Shown piece by piece: positions 7,145 through 15,423 of a DNA stretch of 64,000 bases. Source of the DNA: Cladosporium halotolerans (taxonomy: Eukaryota). Within the stretch, counting starts at the first letter, position 1. The number at the start of each line of letters is the position of its first letter. The notes below the pieces were generated by a model. The model saw only the letters and a list, made by a program, of their open reading frames with translations, did no database searches and was not told the origin of the DNA. A program made the translations under genes and the position numbers. The stretch spans positions 310,001 to 374,000 of the forward strand of contig NW_027191470.1 of assembly GCF_011745625.1 (NCBI RefSeq), read 5' to 3'.

Positions 7145-8560
7145 ATGGCCTCACTAGGCGCAGCCAACGACATCTCCGGCACTCTGTGCCCGCGCTGCAC
7201 CGACAAGGGAACCCTGACTTGCTCGCGCTGCAACGACATCAAGTACTGCTCGGCCGAGTGCCAGAGAGCCGACTGGGCTACGCACAAGGTCCTTTGCGGC
7301 GCCATCAAGGACCTCGGACCCCGCCCCTCCAAGGACATGCGTCGCATCCTTGCGTTTCTTCCGGACGAGGAAAAGCCGCGATTCGTGTGGGCGCCGCTCA
7401 TGCAGAACTTGTTCAGCCGGCATGAATCCGTTGACATCTCCAGCTTTTTCGAGCCCGCGCCGATGTACAGGCAGAAACCGCAGGTGAAGAACCCGTGGAC
7501 GAACGGAACGCTTGGCTACGGTCTCGACATTCTCTTCGACGACGACTTCAGCCACGCTTACTCGAATGACAACAGAGCCGTGGTCGCCGCGACGAAGGGA
7601 GCGAACACTCTCAGCTGGCGTGGGCCGGTATTCGCCTACTGCGGGCTACTTGGCGGAGGGACAACTGACAAGCGCGACATCGTCAACATCCGTGACATGA
7701 GCATGCTGGGGTACGCTCATGTCGTCGCCAACTTGACCGATTATCACAACAAGGACCCTCGGCACGCGCTGCGCAAAGGCCCGAAAATCGCCTGCGTCAA
7801 GGTCGCCTGCGACAGCGATCGTCTGCCCAACGCGCCGTTCCCCCAGGCCGTCCAAGTCCCGCGCTCGCACCCCGTCTTCCAACGCGAAGGCTGCGTCTCG
7901 CTCGTGTCCGAGGTCGTCATCCCCTTTTGGAGCTTTGCCTCCCGATAGCAAAACCACTGACAACCCCCATCGCAGCTCGCGGGCATGCCGCTCGCGACGT
8001 ACAAGTATCCCGGCTCCAAGAGCATCGCAGCCACGGACGCCAGCAACACGATCGTCTCGGCCCTGCACATCTGCTGCGACCTGACCAGTCCCGAGTGCGC
8101 GCTGCCGGTGGAGCCGTTTCGCTCCGGAGACGTGGGCACCCAGCTCGTCGCGCGCGCGGACCGCACCCCGCTCGACTGCGACACGGTCGAGGTCTTCGGG
8201 AAGTTCTGCGTTGCGGTCGTCGTGACCTCGCTTTGTATGATTCGTGACATGTTCAGGGACGATGGGATGGCCCGGGAGCGACTCGAACAAATGCCCAAGG
8301 GACTTCTCGCTGACGCCTTGCAGCCAGTGTGGGCTGATCACTTTTCGCGGTGGAAGGCTCTCAAGGCCGCAGCAGCTGGTGCTGGCACTGCTGGTAGTGT
8401 CCTCGGGGACGCTGACGCTAATGTTGGCGCTGCTGAGAATGCTGGCAACGACGATCAGCCGGAGCAGTCCGAGTCGACTTGGCCGCACTCAAGTCTGACA
8501 TGGATTGTTCTCCAAGGCAATGTGGAGAACGTAATGGATTCGATCGCTGCCCTCGATTAG
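7145..8560 (+). CDS. MYND-type zinc finger protein, 2 exons
   Basis: N-terminal CPRC-x7-CSRC-x5-C-x3-CQRADW-x2-HKVLC matches zf-MYND. A probable 63-nt intron 7913..7975 (weak GTCGTC donor, ACTGAC branch, CAG) joins ORF 7145 in frame to ORF 7985..8560. Confidence 0.75.
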
Positions 8561-11500
8561 CAGCAGGCAAAGATCAAAACGGGTCTGTGGAGGATCGTGG
8601 GAAAGTATATAGTATCGCTCCCCCTCAGGCGGAGCGCACAAACCTCCTCAAGCACTCAGTAGCTCAAATGACAATCCGAAAATCAAATCCAAAAATCGTA
8701 CTCTCACGACACGACAAACCTGCAAACCCACCTCTGTACCCATCGATCCCTGCCTTTACCCAAAGTCCCCATTGCCAACAGTGTAATAGGACCCATCACA
8801 TCCCAGGTCCCAATTCTCCACCCACAAATCAATAAACCACACCCAACCCAACCCAACCCAGCCAAAACAACAAAAAAAAAACGTCCCCCCAATGCGCCCC
8901 TCCCCCAAACCCAGCCTAGCGCCCGCCACCCACACCCAGCACCCACGCCGCCGTTCCTGCATCCGTCGCCCGTATTGCGCAATGCGGGAAGCACGCCAGC
9001 CCTTGCCTCCGCCGGCAGCCCGCCCCAGAGCCGCAAGCAGCGCTGGCCCTCCGCGTGCGACGTGGGCTCGGCTCGCGAGCTCCGAGGGCACAGTACCCGC
9101 TGGGCAGCCGTGCAACGTGACAGCCGCGGCGGCGCCGGGCTTGGGAAGCGGATGCCGTGTCGGGGAGGGAGTGCTGGGCAGGAAGGGATGGGAGGGAGGG
9201 GGAGGGTGACCGGGTGCGCGGGTTTGGTGTGACGTGGATGACAGGTTTGGGGGGGCTTGCTGTGCTGTTCGGGGGTTCGGGGGAGTGTGGGTTATTGGGA
9301 GATGGAATTGGGGGGGATGAGAGTGTTAGGGTTGGGATGGTGGGGTGTGGGGGTTGCTTGTGGGATGGGGACGAATGAGGGCGGAGTGTAAGTCTGAGAG
9401 CTATCGCGGAGAGACATTTTCGATGTGGTTGTTGAAGGTTCGAAAGCAGTGAGATTGGTGTTTTGTCCAAATACCTAGATGGGAGGACTATCGTGACAAG
9501 ACATGCAGACCAGCGGTATGGATTGACGTTCAACGAATGACGATCCTCGGTCGTACCTGAGCAACCAGCCAAAGAGGCTGCCGCGAAATGGCGTCTCTCA
9601 AAAAAATTCACCGAAGGCGGCACAACATCTTGTCAGATAGCCGTGTTAGCGTGGCGAGGTAAACCGACGGCGCCTTTGACATCTGCGGAGATGTTCGCGG
9701 CCGGGGGTGTTTATGCAGGCAAGCGATGGGAATGATCAGAGCCGAGACACGGACTGCCTTTTACTGACCACTGATGGCGGTCCGGATCACAGGCCGGTCG
9801 CCTCTGAGTGGGATGCCTTGCCGAGCTTTTCCTGCAAATAGGACTGCATGCATGCAATGATGCGTTACCACGCCTGGCGCCGTGGCAGAGGTTGATGTCT
9901 GCCGTAGAATGGTCTACAGTACAGTGAGATAGGTGCGGGTGGGATAGGATACACATGGACTCGAAGCAGAGCCATGACTAGATGGGTGGGGTGAGAGGTG
10001 ACATGCACGTATTGGGACGTTCGCTGAAATGTATCACACCCTATTCGACGCTTAGTCGCGTGACGTTGCCCGGCTGGCAGCGGGATGCAGTTTAGCAAGG
10101 CAATAATTGCCGTCTGCGAAAGGCCATATGATCGACCGGGGATAAGCTCGACGCAGGTGCAGGCAGATTCGTAGTGCAACCCTGCAAGCATTGGCCGCAC
10201 ACGTCGGTTTCCGGCATAGCTCAGACCGGGTGGCGAGGAAAGTTCAAGGTGTGGCTGCAGGTGATCTGTATTGAAGAACCCGGTCGGTGGGATCTCTGTC
10301 TGTTTGACACGCCCGGGTGCGGCGACGTGTCAGCATGTGCGAGCTTGTGCTCGGCCAACGGCGCGGGAGATGCGGATGAAATGGAAGACGCATGACGTGC
10401 CGGCCACGGCCGACGACGACACGCACGATGGACGACAGGGCGATGGGTTGCACGCAGCTCGACGTGGTGTCGACTCACTAGACCATCTGGGCGGTGGGGC
10501 TGGCACAGGTCGGCGGATGGTGGCCGGCGGCAGAGGGAGGTGTAGTGAGCGCTTTGTGACAGATCGCGTAGAGATATAGGTGGAGGCCGCGATGACAGGC
10601 TGCCATTGGCGCAGGCGCGGCGGGCGCTGCAGGGGCGGGCATGGCGTCTGCGCGGCTCATGCAGGTCGCCGGACGCGGAAGGGACCACGCTGCTTGACGC
10701 TGGATCGGATATGCCACGGGCAGCGCGCGCTGCAGCAGGCCGGCGATGGCGACGAGCGGTGATGCGGACGGTGGGGCGCGGAGGGAGGCGGCAGGCGGGA
10801 GATGGCAGAGCGGATGGCGTGAGTAGGTAGGTGTGGGAGCAGCAGGCAGGACACGAGAGGGCAGGGCAGGGTGTGGAGGTGAGGTCGGAGAAATGCTGCC
10901 TCAGCAGTCCAGGGCGGCCGCTCGCCAGGCTCGCCCGGCTCGCCAGGCACCGGGGCAGCGCTTGGTGGGATCGCGGGCGCGCAGGCAGGTGCGTCGGCTC
11001 GAGGCTTCCTGGCTGCGGGCGCGATCTCGCGCAAACTCTAACCAAGATGGTGGGACGCACTCCGCCGCGCTGGGCGATGCGAGCTAACCCAAACCCTCGC
11101 CCGCCGCCCGCCTGCAGTGCCGCGTTCTGGAAGAGCGCAGCAGGGGAGGCAGAACAAGCGGCAGCGCAGCACCCAGCGGCAGCACCCAGCGGCAGCAGCA
11201 GCAGCAGCAGCAGTGAGAGCCCGCCCAGCACTACTGCGCGTCCTCCCTCCCGCCCTCTGGCCTCATGGCATCCCCCGCCAGGCCCCGTCGCTCGAAGCAG
11301 CAGCCCTGGAGCGCGCCAGACTCCGCCCGCCAGCCCGCCAGCAAGGATCAGCTGTCTTGCCCGTCCGTGGCGCCAAAAATCGCCGTGAGCCCGCCCGCGC
11401 CGTGAACCCTCGCGCACCTCCACGCCCTCGCTGCTTGCTGCTTCGGGCCTGCAGTGGCCATGGGCGCGCGGGCTGGCGAACGGCGCGCGAACCGGGGCAG

Positions 11501-11850
11501 CATGTCGCAGCGTCTGCAGCGATCCCTCGTGCCACTCGGCCTCTGCCTCACTGCTGTTTCCATCGCCACAGCTCCCCTTTCGACGCCGCTGGTGTGTGCC
11601 TGACCTGTCACTGGCTGCGCTAGTTGCGGGTCCTGTCGGTGCGAGCATACGGACGCTGCCTCATTCTGCCGCCGCCTCCCTGGCTGCTGGCACACTCTGC
11701 CTCGACACTCCCGCCTATATAGCTTTCCCGCCGGCGCCGCGTACCGGCCTGTCTGCATCTCATCCAGGTTTCCGGCAATCCTTCAACCCCTCGCCGTGTC
11801 ACATGCCAATCTGCCTGCTTCGTCCAGTCGACCTACCCTGACATAGCTTC

Positions 11851-11873
11851 GACATTGACATTGACATTGACAT
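11851..11873. repeat. (GACATT)n hexamer microsatellite, about 4 copies
   Basis: Sequence gacattgacattgacattgacat is read directly. Confidence 0.9.
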
Positions 11874-11962
11874 CACCCCTCAATCGTTCTTGGACCACGC
11901 ACCATTGACGCCAGCAACGTCCGCAAGAGGTCACCTTCATACATTCAACACGCATTGGACGT

Positions 11963-11968
11963 TATAAA
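11963..11968 (+). promoter_or_regulatory. Candidate TATA box of the Cys-rich microprotein gene
   Basis: TATAAA lies ~110 nt upstream of the 5'UTR intron donor at 12075 and is followed by a C/A-rich leader. Confidence 0.5.
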
Positions 11969-12155
11969 GCCTCATATCCTGCTCCTGCACTTTCGAAGAT
12001 TGCCCACGCACTCACTCGCGGCTGCCATATCCGCCTGAAACGAGCACAACCTCCTCCAAGTCCCAACGAAAAAGGTACGTACTCACGGCGTCCATTGAAG
12101 TCACACCATCGTCAAGACATACCAAGTTACTAACAAAATATTTAGCCTCATTACA

Positions 12156-12320
12156 ATGGCCAAGCCAGGCAAATGCGAGCACACCTTCAAGGTGATCAAA
12201 TCCGACACCACCCTCATCCTCTGGAACTGCAACATGTGCCACTCTGGGCCCCACTGGTGGATCTACGAATGCGCCAAGTGCAAACTCAAGGCGTGCAAGA
12301 CATGCATGGCGAAAGCGTAG
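12156..12320 (+). CDS. 54-aa Cys/His-rich zinc-finger-like microprotein (not in the ORF track)
   Basis: ACAATGG start context. Translation is MAKPGKCEHTFKVIKSDTTLILWNCNMCHSGPHWWIYECAKCKLKACKTCMAKA*, with three CxxC pairs and mostly C/G-ending codons. A 5'UTR intron 12075..12145 (GTACGT...TACTAAC...TAG) precedes it, and a second intron ends at 12371. Confidence 0.8.
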   Translation: MAKPGKCEHTFKVIKSDTTLILWNCNMCHSGPHWWIYECAKCKLKACKTCMAKA

Positions 12321-14055
12321 GTTGGTGTCGAAAGCTGCTTCGTTTGAGTTGCTGGTGCTGACTCTTCCTAGATCATAAACCTACCTCACAAACACAGATC
12401 GTCGTGCAACATCTGCGGCCACTATGCAGACGCACGATCTATCCTTCGACATGCTCTTCAACGCATTGCTACACCATTCCTCTGCCAGCGACAGACACTT
12501 CTCCCATTTTCCTTCAGCAACAATGTACCACCAATCTAGGGATCATCCGGTTATCGTGATAGCGTTACGTCTTAGCAAGGAGTTTCGGAAGCGGGGAGCG
12601 TAGAAGAAAAACAAGTCCGGCGATGACAACGACGACGACTACGGCAGCAAATCTACCAACCGACAGGCAAGGCAAATGCAAGACGACGGGGCGTTCAGGT
12701 TGATGACATTTACGACAACGCGGGCATGAGACTTTTTTTTGCACCGACACAGGAACACCTCAGAAGGTTCCAATTTACAAGACAGGTTTGCGTCCGCGAG
12801 GACAAACAGGCGGGGATTGTTTCCTTTTCTTTCTTTCTTTCTTCCCGAGTCAAGGTAGTGAGCGTTCTTGCTAGTCTGCAGCTGCGAATAATGAAATTCT
12901 CTCTCTCCCTAGTAAGCGATCTGCTTCTCTTCTGCTGTGATCCCATCCCCTGCACAGCACAGGCTTGCGCGTTGCCGTCAATAACAGAAATCAAGAAAGA
13001 CAGCAGTAACGAGTGAGAGTGTCCGTCAATCCCGCGGGTTCGATAAATCATAATAGGCCGTTCATATCATCATCGTCACCGTCGTCGTCACCGTCGTCGT
13101 CGTCGTCACCGTCCGCTCGTGTCTCATCACATCACCAATAGTCCCTCTCCACATCCACTCCCGTCGCCACGCACACCTCCCCCGACCTCCACCGCCATTC
13201 TAATTCGGGCAGGTCTGATAAAAACGTCAATCTCAGCAAAAAGCGCTCAGATCGCCATGCACACGCAATCGAGACAGATAGATAGATCGGTGCCGTGCAT
13301 GTTCCCACTTACCGAGCCACAGCTCCCGCACGTCTTCGAGCCGCCCGCGATCGCGGCGCTGCACTTCGGGCAGGTGTTGTGCATTTTTGCTTGCAGGGGT
13401 TGGGTGGTTTGGATCTCGGTAGCGAGATGGAGATGAGATGGGTTTTGTGACGGGTTCGATTTTTTTTTGTTATCGACGCGTGTTGAGTAGGTATGACACA
13501 GACTGCAGTCGGGGCTGGAAGGGGAAGAGGACGGTGAGCTTACCCAAGCGAGGCTGCGTCTGCGCTGCGTCGGTTAGGGGCGGCCGGGGCCATGCCAGGC
13601 GCGGCGTCCGCGGTGTCCGCGTGCCTGGTTTGAGATTTGGGCTGTCCTGCAGCAGCCGAGGCTTGCCTACAGAATAGTACGGTGCAGCAGCAGGCTCGCT
13701 TGTGGGAGAGTGAGAGATATGCGAGGCCGGGGAGGCGGGCGCGGGATACTCGCGAGGAGGATCGCTTTTACGCGGTCTGCTAGATTTATTAATTTTAGAC
13801 CCTCGAGGCTCAAGCGACCCTGATGGCCGCACGAGCTTTACTGTATCTGAATCAAGCCTCTGGTGACGTCTCTTGCCGGGTGCCCTGTGTTTTGCCCTCC
13901 CACGCTTGCGTCGATCATCGAGTCCCGACCCCACGCCTTGCTCGCGCGACACTTGGATTTTGTGGGAGGCGCTCAGTGCTGAGCTCCCGTGCAATCCACT
14001 TGTAGCCTCGAGCCAAGGAGCAGGACCGACACCTCCAAGGCTTGGGTCTGATGCC

Positions 14056-15423
14056 ATGCTCGTCCGCCCATTCGCGAGCATAGCGAGGCCCAGAGCGGGT
14101 CTCTGCGCCGGCCGTCTCGCCTCGCGTGCTCACCACAACCGACGATACATCCAGACCGCTACAGTGACCGACGCCGACATCCAGCGTCTGGCCGCGAAGC
14201 CGCTGCACCCATTGACCCTCGCCGACCTCTGCAAACATGGCCGCCCGCCCCTCTCGACCCAAGCCTTGTTCAACAGCGCCAACTTCACCCTCCAAATCCT
14301 CCCCTCCCGCCTCGCCCACCGCATCCAGTCCCTCCGAGCCCTGCCCTACATCGTCGTCGCCAACCCGAACGTCAGCAAGATCCACGGCAACTACCTGCAC
14401 AGCCTGAGCACCCTGCTGCCCTACGCCGAGCGCAAAATCGAGACGCTGAAAGATGAGATTGACTTCACAGAGGTCATGGCGGACCTCGTCCACACGCACA
14501 GCAACACCATCGAGGTCCTGGCGCGCGGCTTCCTCGAAGCGCGCAAATACATCTCCCCCGAGGAAATCACGCGCTTCCTCGACGAGCACCTGCGCGCGCG
14601 CATCGGCACGCGCCTGATCGCCGAGCAGCACATCGCGCTGCACTTCTCCTCCCAAGCGCACAAGGACCTCTCCTCAGACCACGACCACTTCCACCGCACG
14701 AGCCAGGACTCGACGTACATCGGCGTGATCGACACGGCCCTCAAACCAGCCACCATCATCCGGAACTGCGAAGCGACGGTCGGCGAGATCTGCGAGCTGC
14801 GCTACGGCGTCCGGCCCTCCGTCGTCCTGACCGGCGACCCAGACACCACCATCGCCCACATCCCCATGCACCTCGAGTACATCCTCACCGAACTCCTCAA
14901 GAACTCCTTCCGCGCCACGATCGAAGCCGGCATGGAAAAGGAGCCGATCGAAATCACCATCGCGCCCGCGCCCGCCGCGGAAGAAGAGCAGCGCTCCTCC
15001 GACTCCTCCCCACGCAGCAGCACACTCAGCACCGCAACGCAAGGCTCCACGCCCTCGACCGCGAGCCCCAAAATCCGCCCCCTCGACCTCAGCACGCCCG
15101 GCGTGACCCTCCGCATCCGCGACCGCGGCGGCGGCATCAGCCCGTCCGTCTACCCCAAGCTCTGGGAATACGGCTTCACGACCTTTAACGAGGACGAGAT
15201 GAACGACAAGCTGGCCGGCGGAGGCGGGGCGGGCGGCATGAACGCGCTGGATGTCATATCGGGCGGGGCCGCGGGCGGCAGCACGCTGGCGGGGCTGGGC
15301 TACGGGCTGCCGCTGGGGAGGGCGTACGCGGAGTATTTCGGGGGAGGCATCGCGGTGCAGAGTCTGTGGGGGTGGGGGACGGATGTGTATTTGAGTCTGA
15401 GGGGGGTGGGGAGGGTTAGTTAG
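14056..15423 (+). CDS. Mitochondrial alpha-ketoacid dehydrogenase kinase (PDK/BCKDK family)
   Basis: Arg-rich presequence MLVRPFASIARPR; BCDHK_Adom3-like region (RLAHRIQSLRALPY, RIGTRLIAEQHIAL); GHKL boxes ELLKNSFRA, IRDRGGGI and GLGYGLPLGRAYAEYFGG. The ORF track starts at TTG 13873; the first in-frame ATG is 14056. Confidence 0.93.
   Translation: MLVRPFASIARPRAGLCAGRLASRAHHNRRYIQTATVTDADIQRLAAKPLHPLTLADLCKHGRPPLSTQALFNSANFTLQILPSRLAHRIQSLRALPYIVVANPNVSKIHGNYLHSLSTLLPYAERKIETLKDEIDFTEVMADLVHTHSNTIEVLARGFLEARKYISPEEITRFLDEHLRARIGTRLIAEQHIALHFSSQAHKDLSSDHDHFHRTSQDSTYIGVIDTALKPATIIRNCEATVGEICELRYGVRPSVVLTGDPDTTIAHIPMHLEYILTELLKNSFRATIEAGMEKEPIEITIAPAPAAEEEQRSSDSSPRSSTLSTATQGSTPSTASPKIRPLDLSTPGVTLRIRDRGGGISPSVYPKLWEYGFTTFNEDEMNDKLAGGGGAGGMNALDVISGGAAGGSTLAGLGYGLPLGRAYAEYFGGGIAVQSLWGWGTDVYLSLRGVGRVS

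Follow-up and report, generated by a model that had tools for sequence, protein, structure and literature searches.

Among zinc fingers, the C1 domains and their relatives are the described systems that come closest to the protein considered here. In the C1 motif the spacer n between the two central cysteine pairs is 13-14 residues. The related DC1 domain is mainly a plant domain, repeated within larger proteins, and two further finger types with paired cysteines are the ZZ fingers, which end in two C-terminal His ligands, and the RanBP2/NZF fingers, which hold one zinc through the motif W-x-C-x2-C-x3-N-x6-C-x2-C. The whole C1 motif reads HX12CX2CXnCX2CX4HX2CX7C, one zinc of the Vav1 C1 domain is held by the N-terminal His516 together with the C-terminal Cys564, and the CL domain of Bodo saltans KKT2 is C1-like, with a zinc site closed by the N-terminal Cys580 and His584, and does not carry the C1 motif (PMC8178753). 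The subject of this report is a gene for a protein of 54 amino acids (aa) in a stretch of 64,000 nucleotides (nt) from the fungus Cladosporium halotolerans (RefSeq assembly GCF_011745625.1, contig NW_027191470.1, positions 310,001 to 374,000 of the forward strand). This whole stretch is called the window, and positions are counted from its first letter. The original prediction for this locus had proposed an unannotated Cys/His microprotein framed by introns, perhaps a stand-alone zinc finger, and the analysis supports that interpretation as essentially right. The gene is genuine and protein-coding, and the best explanation of its product, which we consider reasonably probable, is a C1-like two-zinc finger that acts as a small non-enzymatic binding module.

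The gene, its transcripts and its conservation

The open reading frame (ORF) starts 10 nt past the end of the first intron and runs from the ATG at 12156 on the forward strand to a TAG at 12318-12320 (165 nt). Its product (6.2 kDa, pI 9.1) has seven Cys, nine Lys and three acidic residues, and by inspection the presumed ligands are spaced as C7-x-H9-x15-C25xxC28-x10-C39xxC42-x4-C47xxC50. The N-terminus, MAKPGKCEH..., is hydrophilic, and no signal peptide is evident by inspection, without a predictor. The spliced leader, at least 186 nt long, contains no ATG. The closest ATG upstream of the start is at 11803, 353 nt off; the window has 914 ATG-to-ATG gaps, of which only 17 reach that length. 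In the spliced frame a stop codon, supplied by the TATAAA at 11963-11968, lies 40 codons 5' of the start. The 64-kb window holds a single copy of the gene.

A scan of metagenome contigs with an alignment of closer relatives yielded 80 loci, and the ORF is intact in 80/80 and exactly 54 codons long in 64 of them; a further 54-codon ORF (L040) contains an ambiguous base. Between the window and the ten closest distinct sequences there are only 1-2 non-synonymous but 10-19 synonymous substitutions, with a ratio of the two rates (omega, or dN/dS) of 0.005-0.018. For the 52 distinct coding sequences (CDS), 620 of the 1326 pairs are saturated at synonymous sites, and for the 703 usable pairs omega has its median at 0.13 and reaches at most 0.71. 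Substitutions by codon phase number 1/0/17, 2/0/15, 1/0/13 and 4/4/18 in the alignments to relatives, with no indels, and the DNA similarity begins about 3 nt 5' of the ATG and ends at the stop codon. Judged from these comparisons, the 54-residue protein is under very strong purifying selection. The intactness of the ORF and the concentration of substitutions at third positions go far beyond chance and rule out chance alone as the source of the ORF.

The family reaches well beyond the close relatives. A word-indexed search found ten proteins at 68-98% identity, all called hypothetical or uncharacterised, and those named among them are all from Dothideomycetes (Cladosporium fusiforme, Zymoseptoria tritici, Zopfia, Acidomyces and Dissoconium). 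When 1.84 billion cluster representatives were scanned exhaustively with HMMER, 159 scored E<=0.001, 71 of these E<=1e-10, and the named members span five classes of Pezizomycotina: besides the Dothideomycetes, they come from Sordariomycetes (Colletotrichum, Neurospora crassa NCU07009, Dactylonectria and Magnaporthiopsis), Leotiomycetes (Blumeria, Oidiodendron and Drepanopeziza), Pezizomycetes (Sphaerosporella) and Orbiliomycetes (Drechslerella and Orbilia). Blumeria is an obligate parasite with a reduced gene set. Homologues such as MYCGRDRAFT_48452, Q7P37_000067 and NCU07009 are 48-98% identical to the window protein and keep all eight ligands, and this includes NCU07009 (family member P0072) at the lower limit of 48%. 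In the ESM Atlas only Ascomycota clusters labelled 'hypothetical protein' score at least 0.9. The sequence family is thus already in the databases as hypothetical proteins and lies outside Pfam coverage. A literature search on the locus tags of seven named relatives, and on stand-alone or atypical C1 small proteins in fungi or Pezizomycotina, found nothing relevant.

Many database models of the family are longer than 54 residues. The 141 representatives with a single matching stretch were classed, multi-stretch proteins being dropped and 15 more being set aside (nine without C-x-H at the start of the hit, six with N-terminally truncated hits). The domain is N-terminal in 59 of the 141 and lies further in for 82, and 59 of these 82 inner-domain models keep a Met 3-12 residues ahead of the first Cys; a free state or a retained internal start Met is found in 118 of the 141. 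The longer models measure 66-159 aa in close relatives, and fused forms can reach 1102 aa. Because the extensions of the longer models are unrelated to each other, most of these models are modelling artefacts. In P0002-P0006, P0011, P0163, P0072 and others the extra residues come from reading through the 5' untranslated region (5'UTR) or the intron within it at the N-terminus, and through the stop-codon intron at the C-terminus, as in the 112-aa model of NCU07009. Extensions in the database models of the family are often spurious and hide the 54-residue product.

The structure of the gene (Table 1) is documented by assembled contigs from four runs (X1, X4, X5 and X8), aligned on 11500-13300, and GT..AG joints for introns 1 and 2 occur in contigs of three public studies. 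For intron 1, whose signals are GTACGT at 12075, TACTAAC at 12128-12134 and TAG at 12143-12145, the joint 12074|12146 was seen in the X1 and X4 contigs, from two studies; it has GT..AG ends and skips 71 nt, and the spliced X4 contig runs over 11899..12072 and resumes at 12144. Intron 2 has alternative 5' splice sites 4 nt apart, at 12317 and 12321, which straddle the stop codon. In X5 (joint 12316|12372, GTAGGT...TAG) splicing takes out the stop codon TAG, and the product gains one Ser and is closed, at 55 aa, by another TAA at 12376-12378, where the original prediction had placed the end of the feature. In X1 and X4 (12320|12372, GTTGGT...TAG) the TAG is kept and the intron follows directly after it. 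X5 and X1, which come from near-identical strains, differ in the form that they show.

A metagenome contig from a relative, L017, offers a further view of both introns. Compared with the genomic relatives L002, L007 and L012, it is without the 55-60-nt GTATGT/GTACGT segment just before the start codon and without the 60-nt GTAGGT...TATAG segment at the stop. Since both intron segments are cleanly absent, L017 is a spliced, RNA-derived copy, and it uses the upstream 5' splice site at the stop codon. The X8 contig is unspliced and looks like DNA of a relative. The X4 and X5 contigs end at 12754 and 12748, X8 runs on, and X1 runs on into the convergent neighbour; these ends are a weak hint of a transcript 3' end near 12750.

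A survey with a strict intron pattern (GTRNGY, a CTRAY branch site and YAG) covered 61 distinct testable loci. An intron that ends within 40 nt of the ATG turned up in 17 of these loci and at 11 of 1280 random control positions within them; for an intron whose start lies at -6 to +60 nt relative to the stop, the counts are 26 of the 61 loci and 46 of the 1280 controls. In the Cladosporium-like group a GT lies directly after the stop codon or overlaps it. The layout of intron, tiny ORF and intron is, as far as this pattern search can tell, conserved in part of the family, and it may benefit the expression of so short a gene.

The gene model of the original prediction stands in nearly all its parts. 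The intron with its three signals 10 nt before an ACAATGG start, the 165-nt ORF with its Cys/His pattern and the hydrophilic N-terminus free of an evident signal peptide are all present, and contig joints from two studies at 12074/12146, together with those of the stop-codon intron, bear out the introns at both ends of the CDS. Homologues with conserved Cys and His positions exist, and dN/dS against close relatives is very low. The TATAAA proposed at the head of the gene is present as well; as a core promoter it does not hold, for it lies inside transcribed exon 1, and the start of the spliced X4 contig upstream of it, at 11899, means that it is not the main core promoter in X4.

Predicted fold and proposed function

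Across 28 stand-alone members from several classes the sole invariant columns are C7, H9, C25, C28, C39, C42, C47 and C50; H29 and H33 are kept in 115 and 114 of 180 aligned stretches. The AlphaFold2 model, built with 65 sequences, has a mean pLDDT of 80.6 and a pTM of 0.59, with strands at residues 11-15 and 35-39 and a helix at 48-53. In Foldseek against the PDB the best rows are mostly C1 domains, namely those of Munc13-1 (E 0.022), the RAF1 CRD and PKC C1B, with probabilities of 0.9-1.0 and a TM score of about 0.6, and other top rows are GEF-H1, MgcRacGAP, Vav1, chimaerin and an Arabidopsis DC1 domain. VIA-align, run over 48,161 chains, placed PKC-delta C1B first (Z 5.3, root-mean-square deviation (rmsd) 1.7 A over 43 residues, model residues 9-54 onto 231-276), with further Z values of 4.9 for Nore1, 4.8 for Munc13-1 and 4.3 for Vav1. 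The first 28 VIA-align rows comprise 24 C1, DC1 or KKT2 domains and four TFIIH p44/Ssl1 fingers. The agreement of Foldseek and VIA-align, despite modest scores, favours a C1-like fold, and the protein is predicted to be a two-zinc finger with a C1-like cross-braced treble-clef arrangement.

Sequence profiles point in the same general direction at lower levels of significance. The only Pfam match of the window protein is C1_2 (DC1), which covers profile positions 4-48 of 48 with an E of 0.0025 and whose 18.6 bits fall short of the 26-bit cut-off; C1_1 (PF00130) gave no match to the protein at E up to 10. Among 65 family members nine reach E 0.01 for C1_2 (best 0.0017) and one does so for C1_1 (E 0.0099), and none passes the threshold. 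Against PDB sequences the single protein found only the Vav C1 domain (E 0.8-1.2) and the wide family alignment only the TAB2 NZF (E 0.19). The trimmed family profile gave marginal matches to DC1 1v5n (0.008), the TAB2 NZF (0.0088), the KKT2 central domain (0.017), the Vav C1 (0.045) and the KSR C1 (0.07). One Orbilia relative has been automatically named 'RanBP2-type'. A reading as a single-zinc ribbon of the RanBP2/NZF type was set aside, no such chain being present in the Foldseek or VIA-align list. The idea of a stand-alone two-zinc microprotein resembling C1, DC1 or ZZ fingers has thus gained ground, with C1 at the top of the fold searches, DC1 at Z 3.2, ZZ at 2.8 or less, and C1_2 as the sole, sub-threshold Pfam match.

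Several points weigh against reading the protein as a functional C1-like finger. The fold comes from a predicted model, and in absolute terms all the structural matches are weak: Foldseek against the PDB found no match at E<=0.001, all being at 0.02 or above, and the top VIA-align Z of 5.3 is below the safe level, as a Z under 8 may mean a mere common arrangement. The protein falls short of the C1 motif and of the Pfam thresholds, so that to say it works like an atypical C1 domain is to draw an analogy. Zinc binding, the pairing of the ligands, the binding surface and the kind of partner are things that we infer, as we do the RNA origin of the X1, X4 and X5 contigs, whose run type is a tool's guess. 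Across 15 clades of loci no conserved gene neighbour that could point to a pathway was found beyond close relatives. Finally, the one paper that a literature search on NCU07009 and FGSG_12680 returned lists, in its Table 1, knockouts of both genes as wild type for sexual development (PMC5509106). FGSG_12680 is taken here to be a family member, and wild-type knockouts fit oddly with strong constraint.

In the proposed scheme a three-exon mRNA with a single tiny ORF in its middle exon would give the 54-residue protein, or one of 55 residues when the upstream splice site is used. By analogy with C1 domains, one zinc would be held by C25/C28/C47/C50 and the other by C39/C42 together with C7/H9, the C7-x-H9 pair replacing the N-terminal His and C-terminal Cys of a true C1 domain. 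The last C1 ligand is missing because the chain ends four residues after C50, and the invariant C7 is its likely substitute. The most conserved stretches apart from the ligands are I14-K-S-D-T-T-L-I-L-W23 and H29-S-G-P-H-W-W35, which we take to correspond to the two loops of the C1 ligand site, and the zinc-braced core may present them at the C1 ligand-binding end, ringed by lysines. With no room for a catalytic site, a non-enzymatic binding module is the most likely role. As to its partner, a protein seems the leading candidate, though short of an even chance; nucleic acid or chromatin would come next, then some other kind of partner, and an anionic membrane last. Atypical C1 domains are devoid of lipid-binding features and may instead serve in protein-protein interaction (PMC2427238).

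The domain also occurs within larger proteins. It is embedded in two Myb+C2H2 proteins (P0027, and P0165 from Epicoccum nigrum), a C2H2 protein (P0042), a bZIP protein (P0109), a protein with a ubiquitin-like domain (ULD_2, P0131) and an EF-hand protein (P0147), the last possibly a merged gene model; these clear fusions number six among the 159 representatives, and some may be merged gene models.

A different set of carriers consists of mitochondrial-looking ORFs of 203-472 aa, in frame from a respiratory gene: P0062, P0146 and P0155 follow COX1, P0097 follows ND4L, P0152 follows the first 98 positions of COX3, and P0130, P0142 and P0048 belong to the same set. They end in the same finger preceded by a Met (e.g. 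...YMAQC.H), and several carry a piece like the C-terminus of COX1 (SPP.PH...LP.QS) even when attached to another gene. No Pfam family covers their middle part. To judge by their make-up, they resemble the mobile in-frame ORFs of fungal mitochondria.

To our knowledge, closure of a zinc site by an N-terminal Cys and His has otherwise been described only for the CL domain of kinetoplastid KKT2/KKT3. A bolder proposal, and one that we hold to be rather unlikely, is that the family forms a distinct Pezizomycotina-wide class of finger, C1-like in shape, in which the second zinc is closed by an N-terminal C-x-H as in KKT2/KKT3. Its 54-codon unit, start Met included, would have been captured repeatedly by transcription factors and by apparently mobile mitochondrial ORFs that bear a copied piece of the COX1 C-terminus, as a portable module for targeting nucleic acid or chromatin, and the free form would be a dosage-sensitive regulator held under extreme purifying selection.

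The main rival to the binding module with a C1-like fold is rather unlikely. On this view the basic 6-kDa finger would pass into the nucleus and attach to DNA, RNA or proteins of chromatin, and transcription factors and mobile mitochondrial ORFs would have recruited the module for that reason. The high pI of 9.1 with nine Lys against three acidic residues, the presence of the domain in Myb+C2H2, C2H2 and bZIP proteins and its position at the end of ORFs that continue COX1, COX3 or ND4L in frame all fit such a role, as does the resemblance of the central W-x-C-x2-C-x10-C-x2-C to the TAB2 NZF (E 0.0088). The KKT2 CL domain, similar at Z 3.1 and E 0.017, is moreover a centromere-localisation domain (PMC8178753). 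Yet only six of 159 representatives are clear fusions, some of them perhaps merged models, C1-like folds are not classical DNA binders, and RanBP2/NZF chains appear in neither fold list. NZF fingers, besides, bind ubiquitin and not nucleic acid, which counts against this explanation too.

A typical C1 lipid sensor, whose hydrophobic loop tips L20, L22, W23, W34 and W35 would insert into membranes and whose ring of lysines would hold anionic lipids or diacylglycerol (DAG), is a weaker candidate and improbable overall. The top structural match is the phorbol-binding PKC-delta C1B, one relative has been automatically named 'Phorbol-ester/DAG-type domain-containing protein' in UniRef, and the conserved loops do place aromatic and aliphatic residues beside lysines. 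Phorbol binding needs a Pro/Gly/Gln trio, and residues 10-24 contain no Pro. C1_1 matches a single member of 65, at E 0.0099. The loop that follows the His is 15 residues long, against 12 in the C1 motif (PMC8178753), and the one that separates the Cys pairs has 10, against 13-14. With loops of these lengths a role as a typical DAG sensor is unlikely.

Less probable again is a titrating microProtein, a free domain that would associate with its counterpart in larger proteins (Myb/C2H2, bZIP or ULD_2) and block or modulate them. Larger proteins with the domain exist in Pezizomycotina, in other species, and the free form is indeed a single 54-aa domain; the free form is nevertheless the common one (118 of 141) and the fusions are sporadic, so that most species with the free form may have no target, and the window holds one copy only. 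A metal-handling peptide, that is a zinc or copper buffer or chaperone acting with the convergent 28-aa zinc-ribbon microprotein described below, is very improbable. Cys makes up 13% of the protein, the neighbour is Cys-rich too, and the pair is kept in 16 related loci, but the rigid spacing, hydrophobic core and conserved loops are those of a structural finger and not of a metallothionein, and the adjacency is confined to fairly close relatives, as descent alone predicts. That the ORF is short and some database models are longer (66-159 aa, fused forms up to 1102 aa) might suggest a chance ORF in a non-coding RNA or an exon of a larger gene, readings that are already contradicted and close to nil in probability because the ORF is intact at 80/80 loci with its length fixed in 64, omega is 0.005-0.018 and substitutions fall on third positions, and against which also stand the in-frame stop upstream, the leader without AUG, the Met kept near the first Cys in 59 of 82 longer models and the unrelated extensions.

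Feature map and flanking sequence

The features of the locus are collected in Table 1.

Table 1. Coordinates of the 54-codon gene and of neighbouring features in the window
Feature	Position	Strand	Remarks
Exon 1, 5'UTR	11899..12074	+	Minimum extent, true start at or upstream of 11899; contains TATAAA 11963-11968; from spliced X4 contig
Intron 1, 5'UTR, 71 nt	12075..12145	+	Joints in X1 and X4 contigs, GT..AG
CDS, 54 codons + TAG	12156..12320	+	Context ACAATGG; seven Cys and His9 as predicted zinc ligands
Intron 2, at stop codon	12317..12371 (55 nt) or 12321..12371 (51 nt)	+	Joints in X5, or in X1 and X4
Exon 3, 3'UTR	12372..~12750	+	End approximate; conserved element at ~12549-12590
Conserved non-coding island	11427..11768	+	blastn 73-77% identity, all or part, in 18/80 loci
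Convergent second microprotein gene	Exon 1 13384..13313, intron 13312..13215, exon 2 13214..13200	-	Contigs and L017

Upstream of the gene, the original prediction had noted some 3.4 kb of gene-free sequence and suggested complex regulation. The first part agrees with the data: between 8500 and 11900 none of ten ORFs has a Pfam family and there is no codon periodicity. Coding sequence at 8560-11900 was considered and rejected on these grounds and on flat codon phases and non-triplet indels. The second part is suggested by conserved non-coding islands at 9603-9888, 10109-10354, 10483-10728 and 11427-11768, which are 68-95% identical to relatives and show flat codon-phase counts and indels of 1, 2, 4, 7, 11 and 19 nt; complex regulation from this region is plausible. 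The island nearest to the gene has indels of 1, 2 and 9 nt in its alignment, invariant blocks such as GTCACT and TTCGAC and a conserved TATATAG at 11716-11722. ORFs overlapping this island have no match in Pfam. The island is a candidate promoter or regulatory region, and part of it may be transcribed, with X1 and X5 contigs covering 11525-12013. On the reverse strand an ATG ORF of 475 aa at 10221..11648, in a stretch of about 70% G+C and with a translation rich in Arg, Ala, Pro and Ser, has no Pfam match and no codon periodicity and is most likely an artefact of base composition.

The element in the 3'UTR is conserved in five relatives, with invariant TGATAGCGTT and GGAGT blocks, and reaches 97% identity over 29 nt in the more distant L026. 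By inspection it contains GATA-type motifs in inverted orientation. No convincing consensus RNA fold was obtained for it (-2.35 kcal/mol, one compensatory pair), and a search of 11400-13500 against Rfam returned no family, only a sub-threshold snoRNA match at E 0.9.

The convergent neighbour encodes a second microprotein of 28 aa, 24 from exon 1 (CPKC...CGSC, zinc-ribbon-like) and four from exon 2, with a Pfam match to Zn_Ribbon_1 at E 9e-5, below the cut-off. Its splice is marked by loose ends of the X1 and X4 contigs at 13215, and the gene is intronless in L017. Its exon 1 is conserved, with substitutions of 0/0/9 by codon phase, and it lies beside the gene for the C1-like protein in 16 related loci. 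Further downstream a 455-aa ORF at 14056..15423 on the forward strand, which by its sequence may be a mitochondrial pyruvate or branched-chain ketoacid dehydrogenase kinase, keeps its synteny in eight related loci.

Comparison with known zinc fingers

As a conserved hypothetical gene the locus is ordinary, and it is raised above this by the depth of its conservation, the rearrangement of its ligands, the introns that frame it and the apparent capture of the unit by other proteins. Microproteins of fewer than 60 aa are routinely missed or mis-modelled, and here comparative data fix the product at 54-55 aa along with the gene structure. With an omega of about 0.01 the protein is among the most constrained sequences in these fungi and has been retained even in Blumeria, which makes it a clearly delimited object of study in fungal cell biology. 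The two introns, one of them 10 nt ahead of the start codon and the other at the stop, where the choice of splice site decides whether the stop codon is retained, make the gene a case for studying how very short genes are expressed. If the predicted fold is true, the protein would add to the C1 fold a version that stands alone and has one zinc ligand moved, which would inform the evolution of treble-clef fingers.

The comparison with other cross-braced and ribbon-type fingers sets the limits of the likeness. The ZZ fingers of CBP, p62, Ada2 and HERC2 share with the fungal protein three C-x2-C pairs in similar spacing and a cross-brace; their structural matches extend only over fungal residues 18-54 at Z 2.2-2.8, clearly weaker than C1, the fungal chain has no C-terminal His pair, and in ZZ fingers nothing corresponds to its N-terminal strand, which bears C7 and H9. 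The spacing of the RanBP2/NZF motif fits the fungal W23-x-C25-x2-C28-x10-C39-x2-C42, with Pro32 at the position of the Asn, and the TAB2 NZF matches at E 0.0088. The DC1 domain (Pfam C1_2, PF03107) provides the sole Pfam match and, in Arabidopsis At1g60420 (PDB 1v5n), the best PDB match of the family profile, at E 0.008 over residues 20-51, with a Z of 3.2 and an rmsd of 2.1 A over 45 residues; the 18.6 bits of the fungal protein, though, are below the gathering threshold of 26 bits.

In the KKT2/KKT3 CL domain (PDB 6tly) one zinc is held by an N-terminal Cys and His (PMC8178753), and the invariant fungal C7-x-H9 suggests the same solution. The scores are marginal (E 0.017, Z 3.1) and common descent is thus unsupported; KKT2 has C-x3-H instead of C-x-H, and its domain sits in a large kinase of an unrelated kinetoplastid lineage, with C2H2 fingers after it.

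The closest likeness of the preferred C1-like finger is to the C1 domains themselves, including the atypical ones of Vav1, RAF1 (CRD), KSR, Nore1 and MgcRacGAP. In its predicted model the fungal protein shares their fold, some 50 residues long with two small sheets, a short helix at the C-terminus and presumably two zinc sites, and it also has the N-terminal His with an aromatic residue two positions on (H9-x-F11). Against Vav1 the stretch C-x2-C-x4-[H/C]-x2-C corresponds residue for residue, with H9 on the N-terminal His, C39 and C42 on the C-x2-C and C50 on the Cys, the difference being that C47 sits on the His of the Vav1 H-x2-C. From the C1 motif (PMC8178753) the fungal protein departs in having x15 instead of x12 after the His, an n of 10, a Cys for the internal His and no X7C, and its model ends opposite Vav1 residue 561, before the Cys564 that completes the C1 site of His and C-terminal Cys. 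The ligand lost with that residue is probably supplied by an additional invariant Cys that precedes the His by two positions. The fungal protein is, moreover, a free chain of 54 aa and not a module of a kinase, a guanine nucleotide exchange factor (GEF) or a GTPase-activating protein (GAP). Among the described fingers, the protein is a structurally new variant of the C1-like two-zinc finger, stand-alone, extremely constrained and with one ligand relocated.

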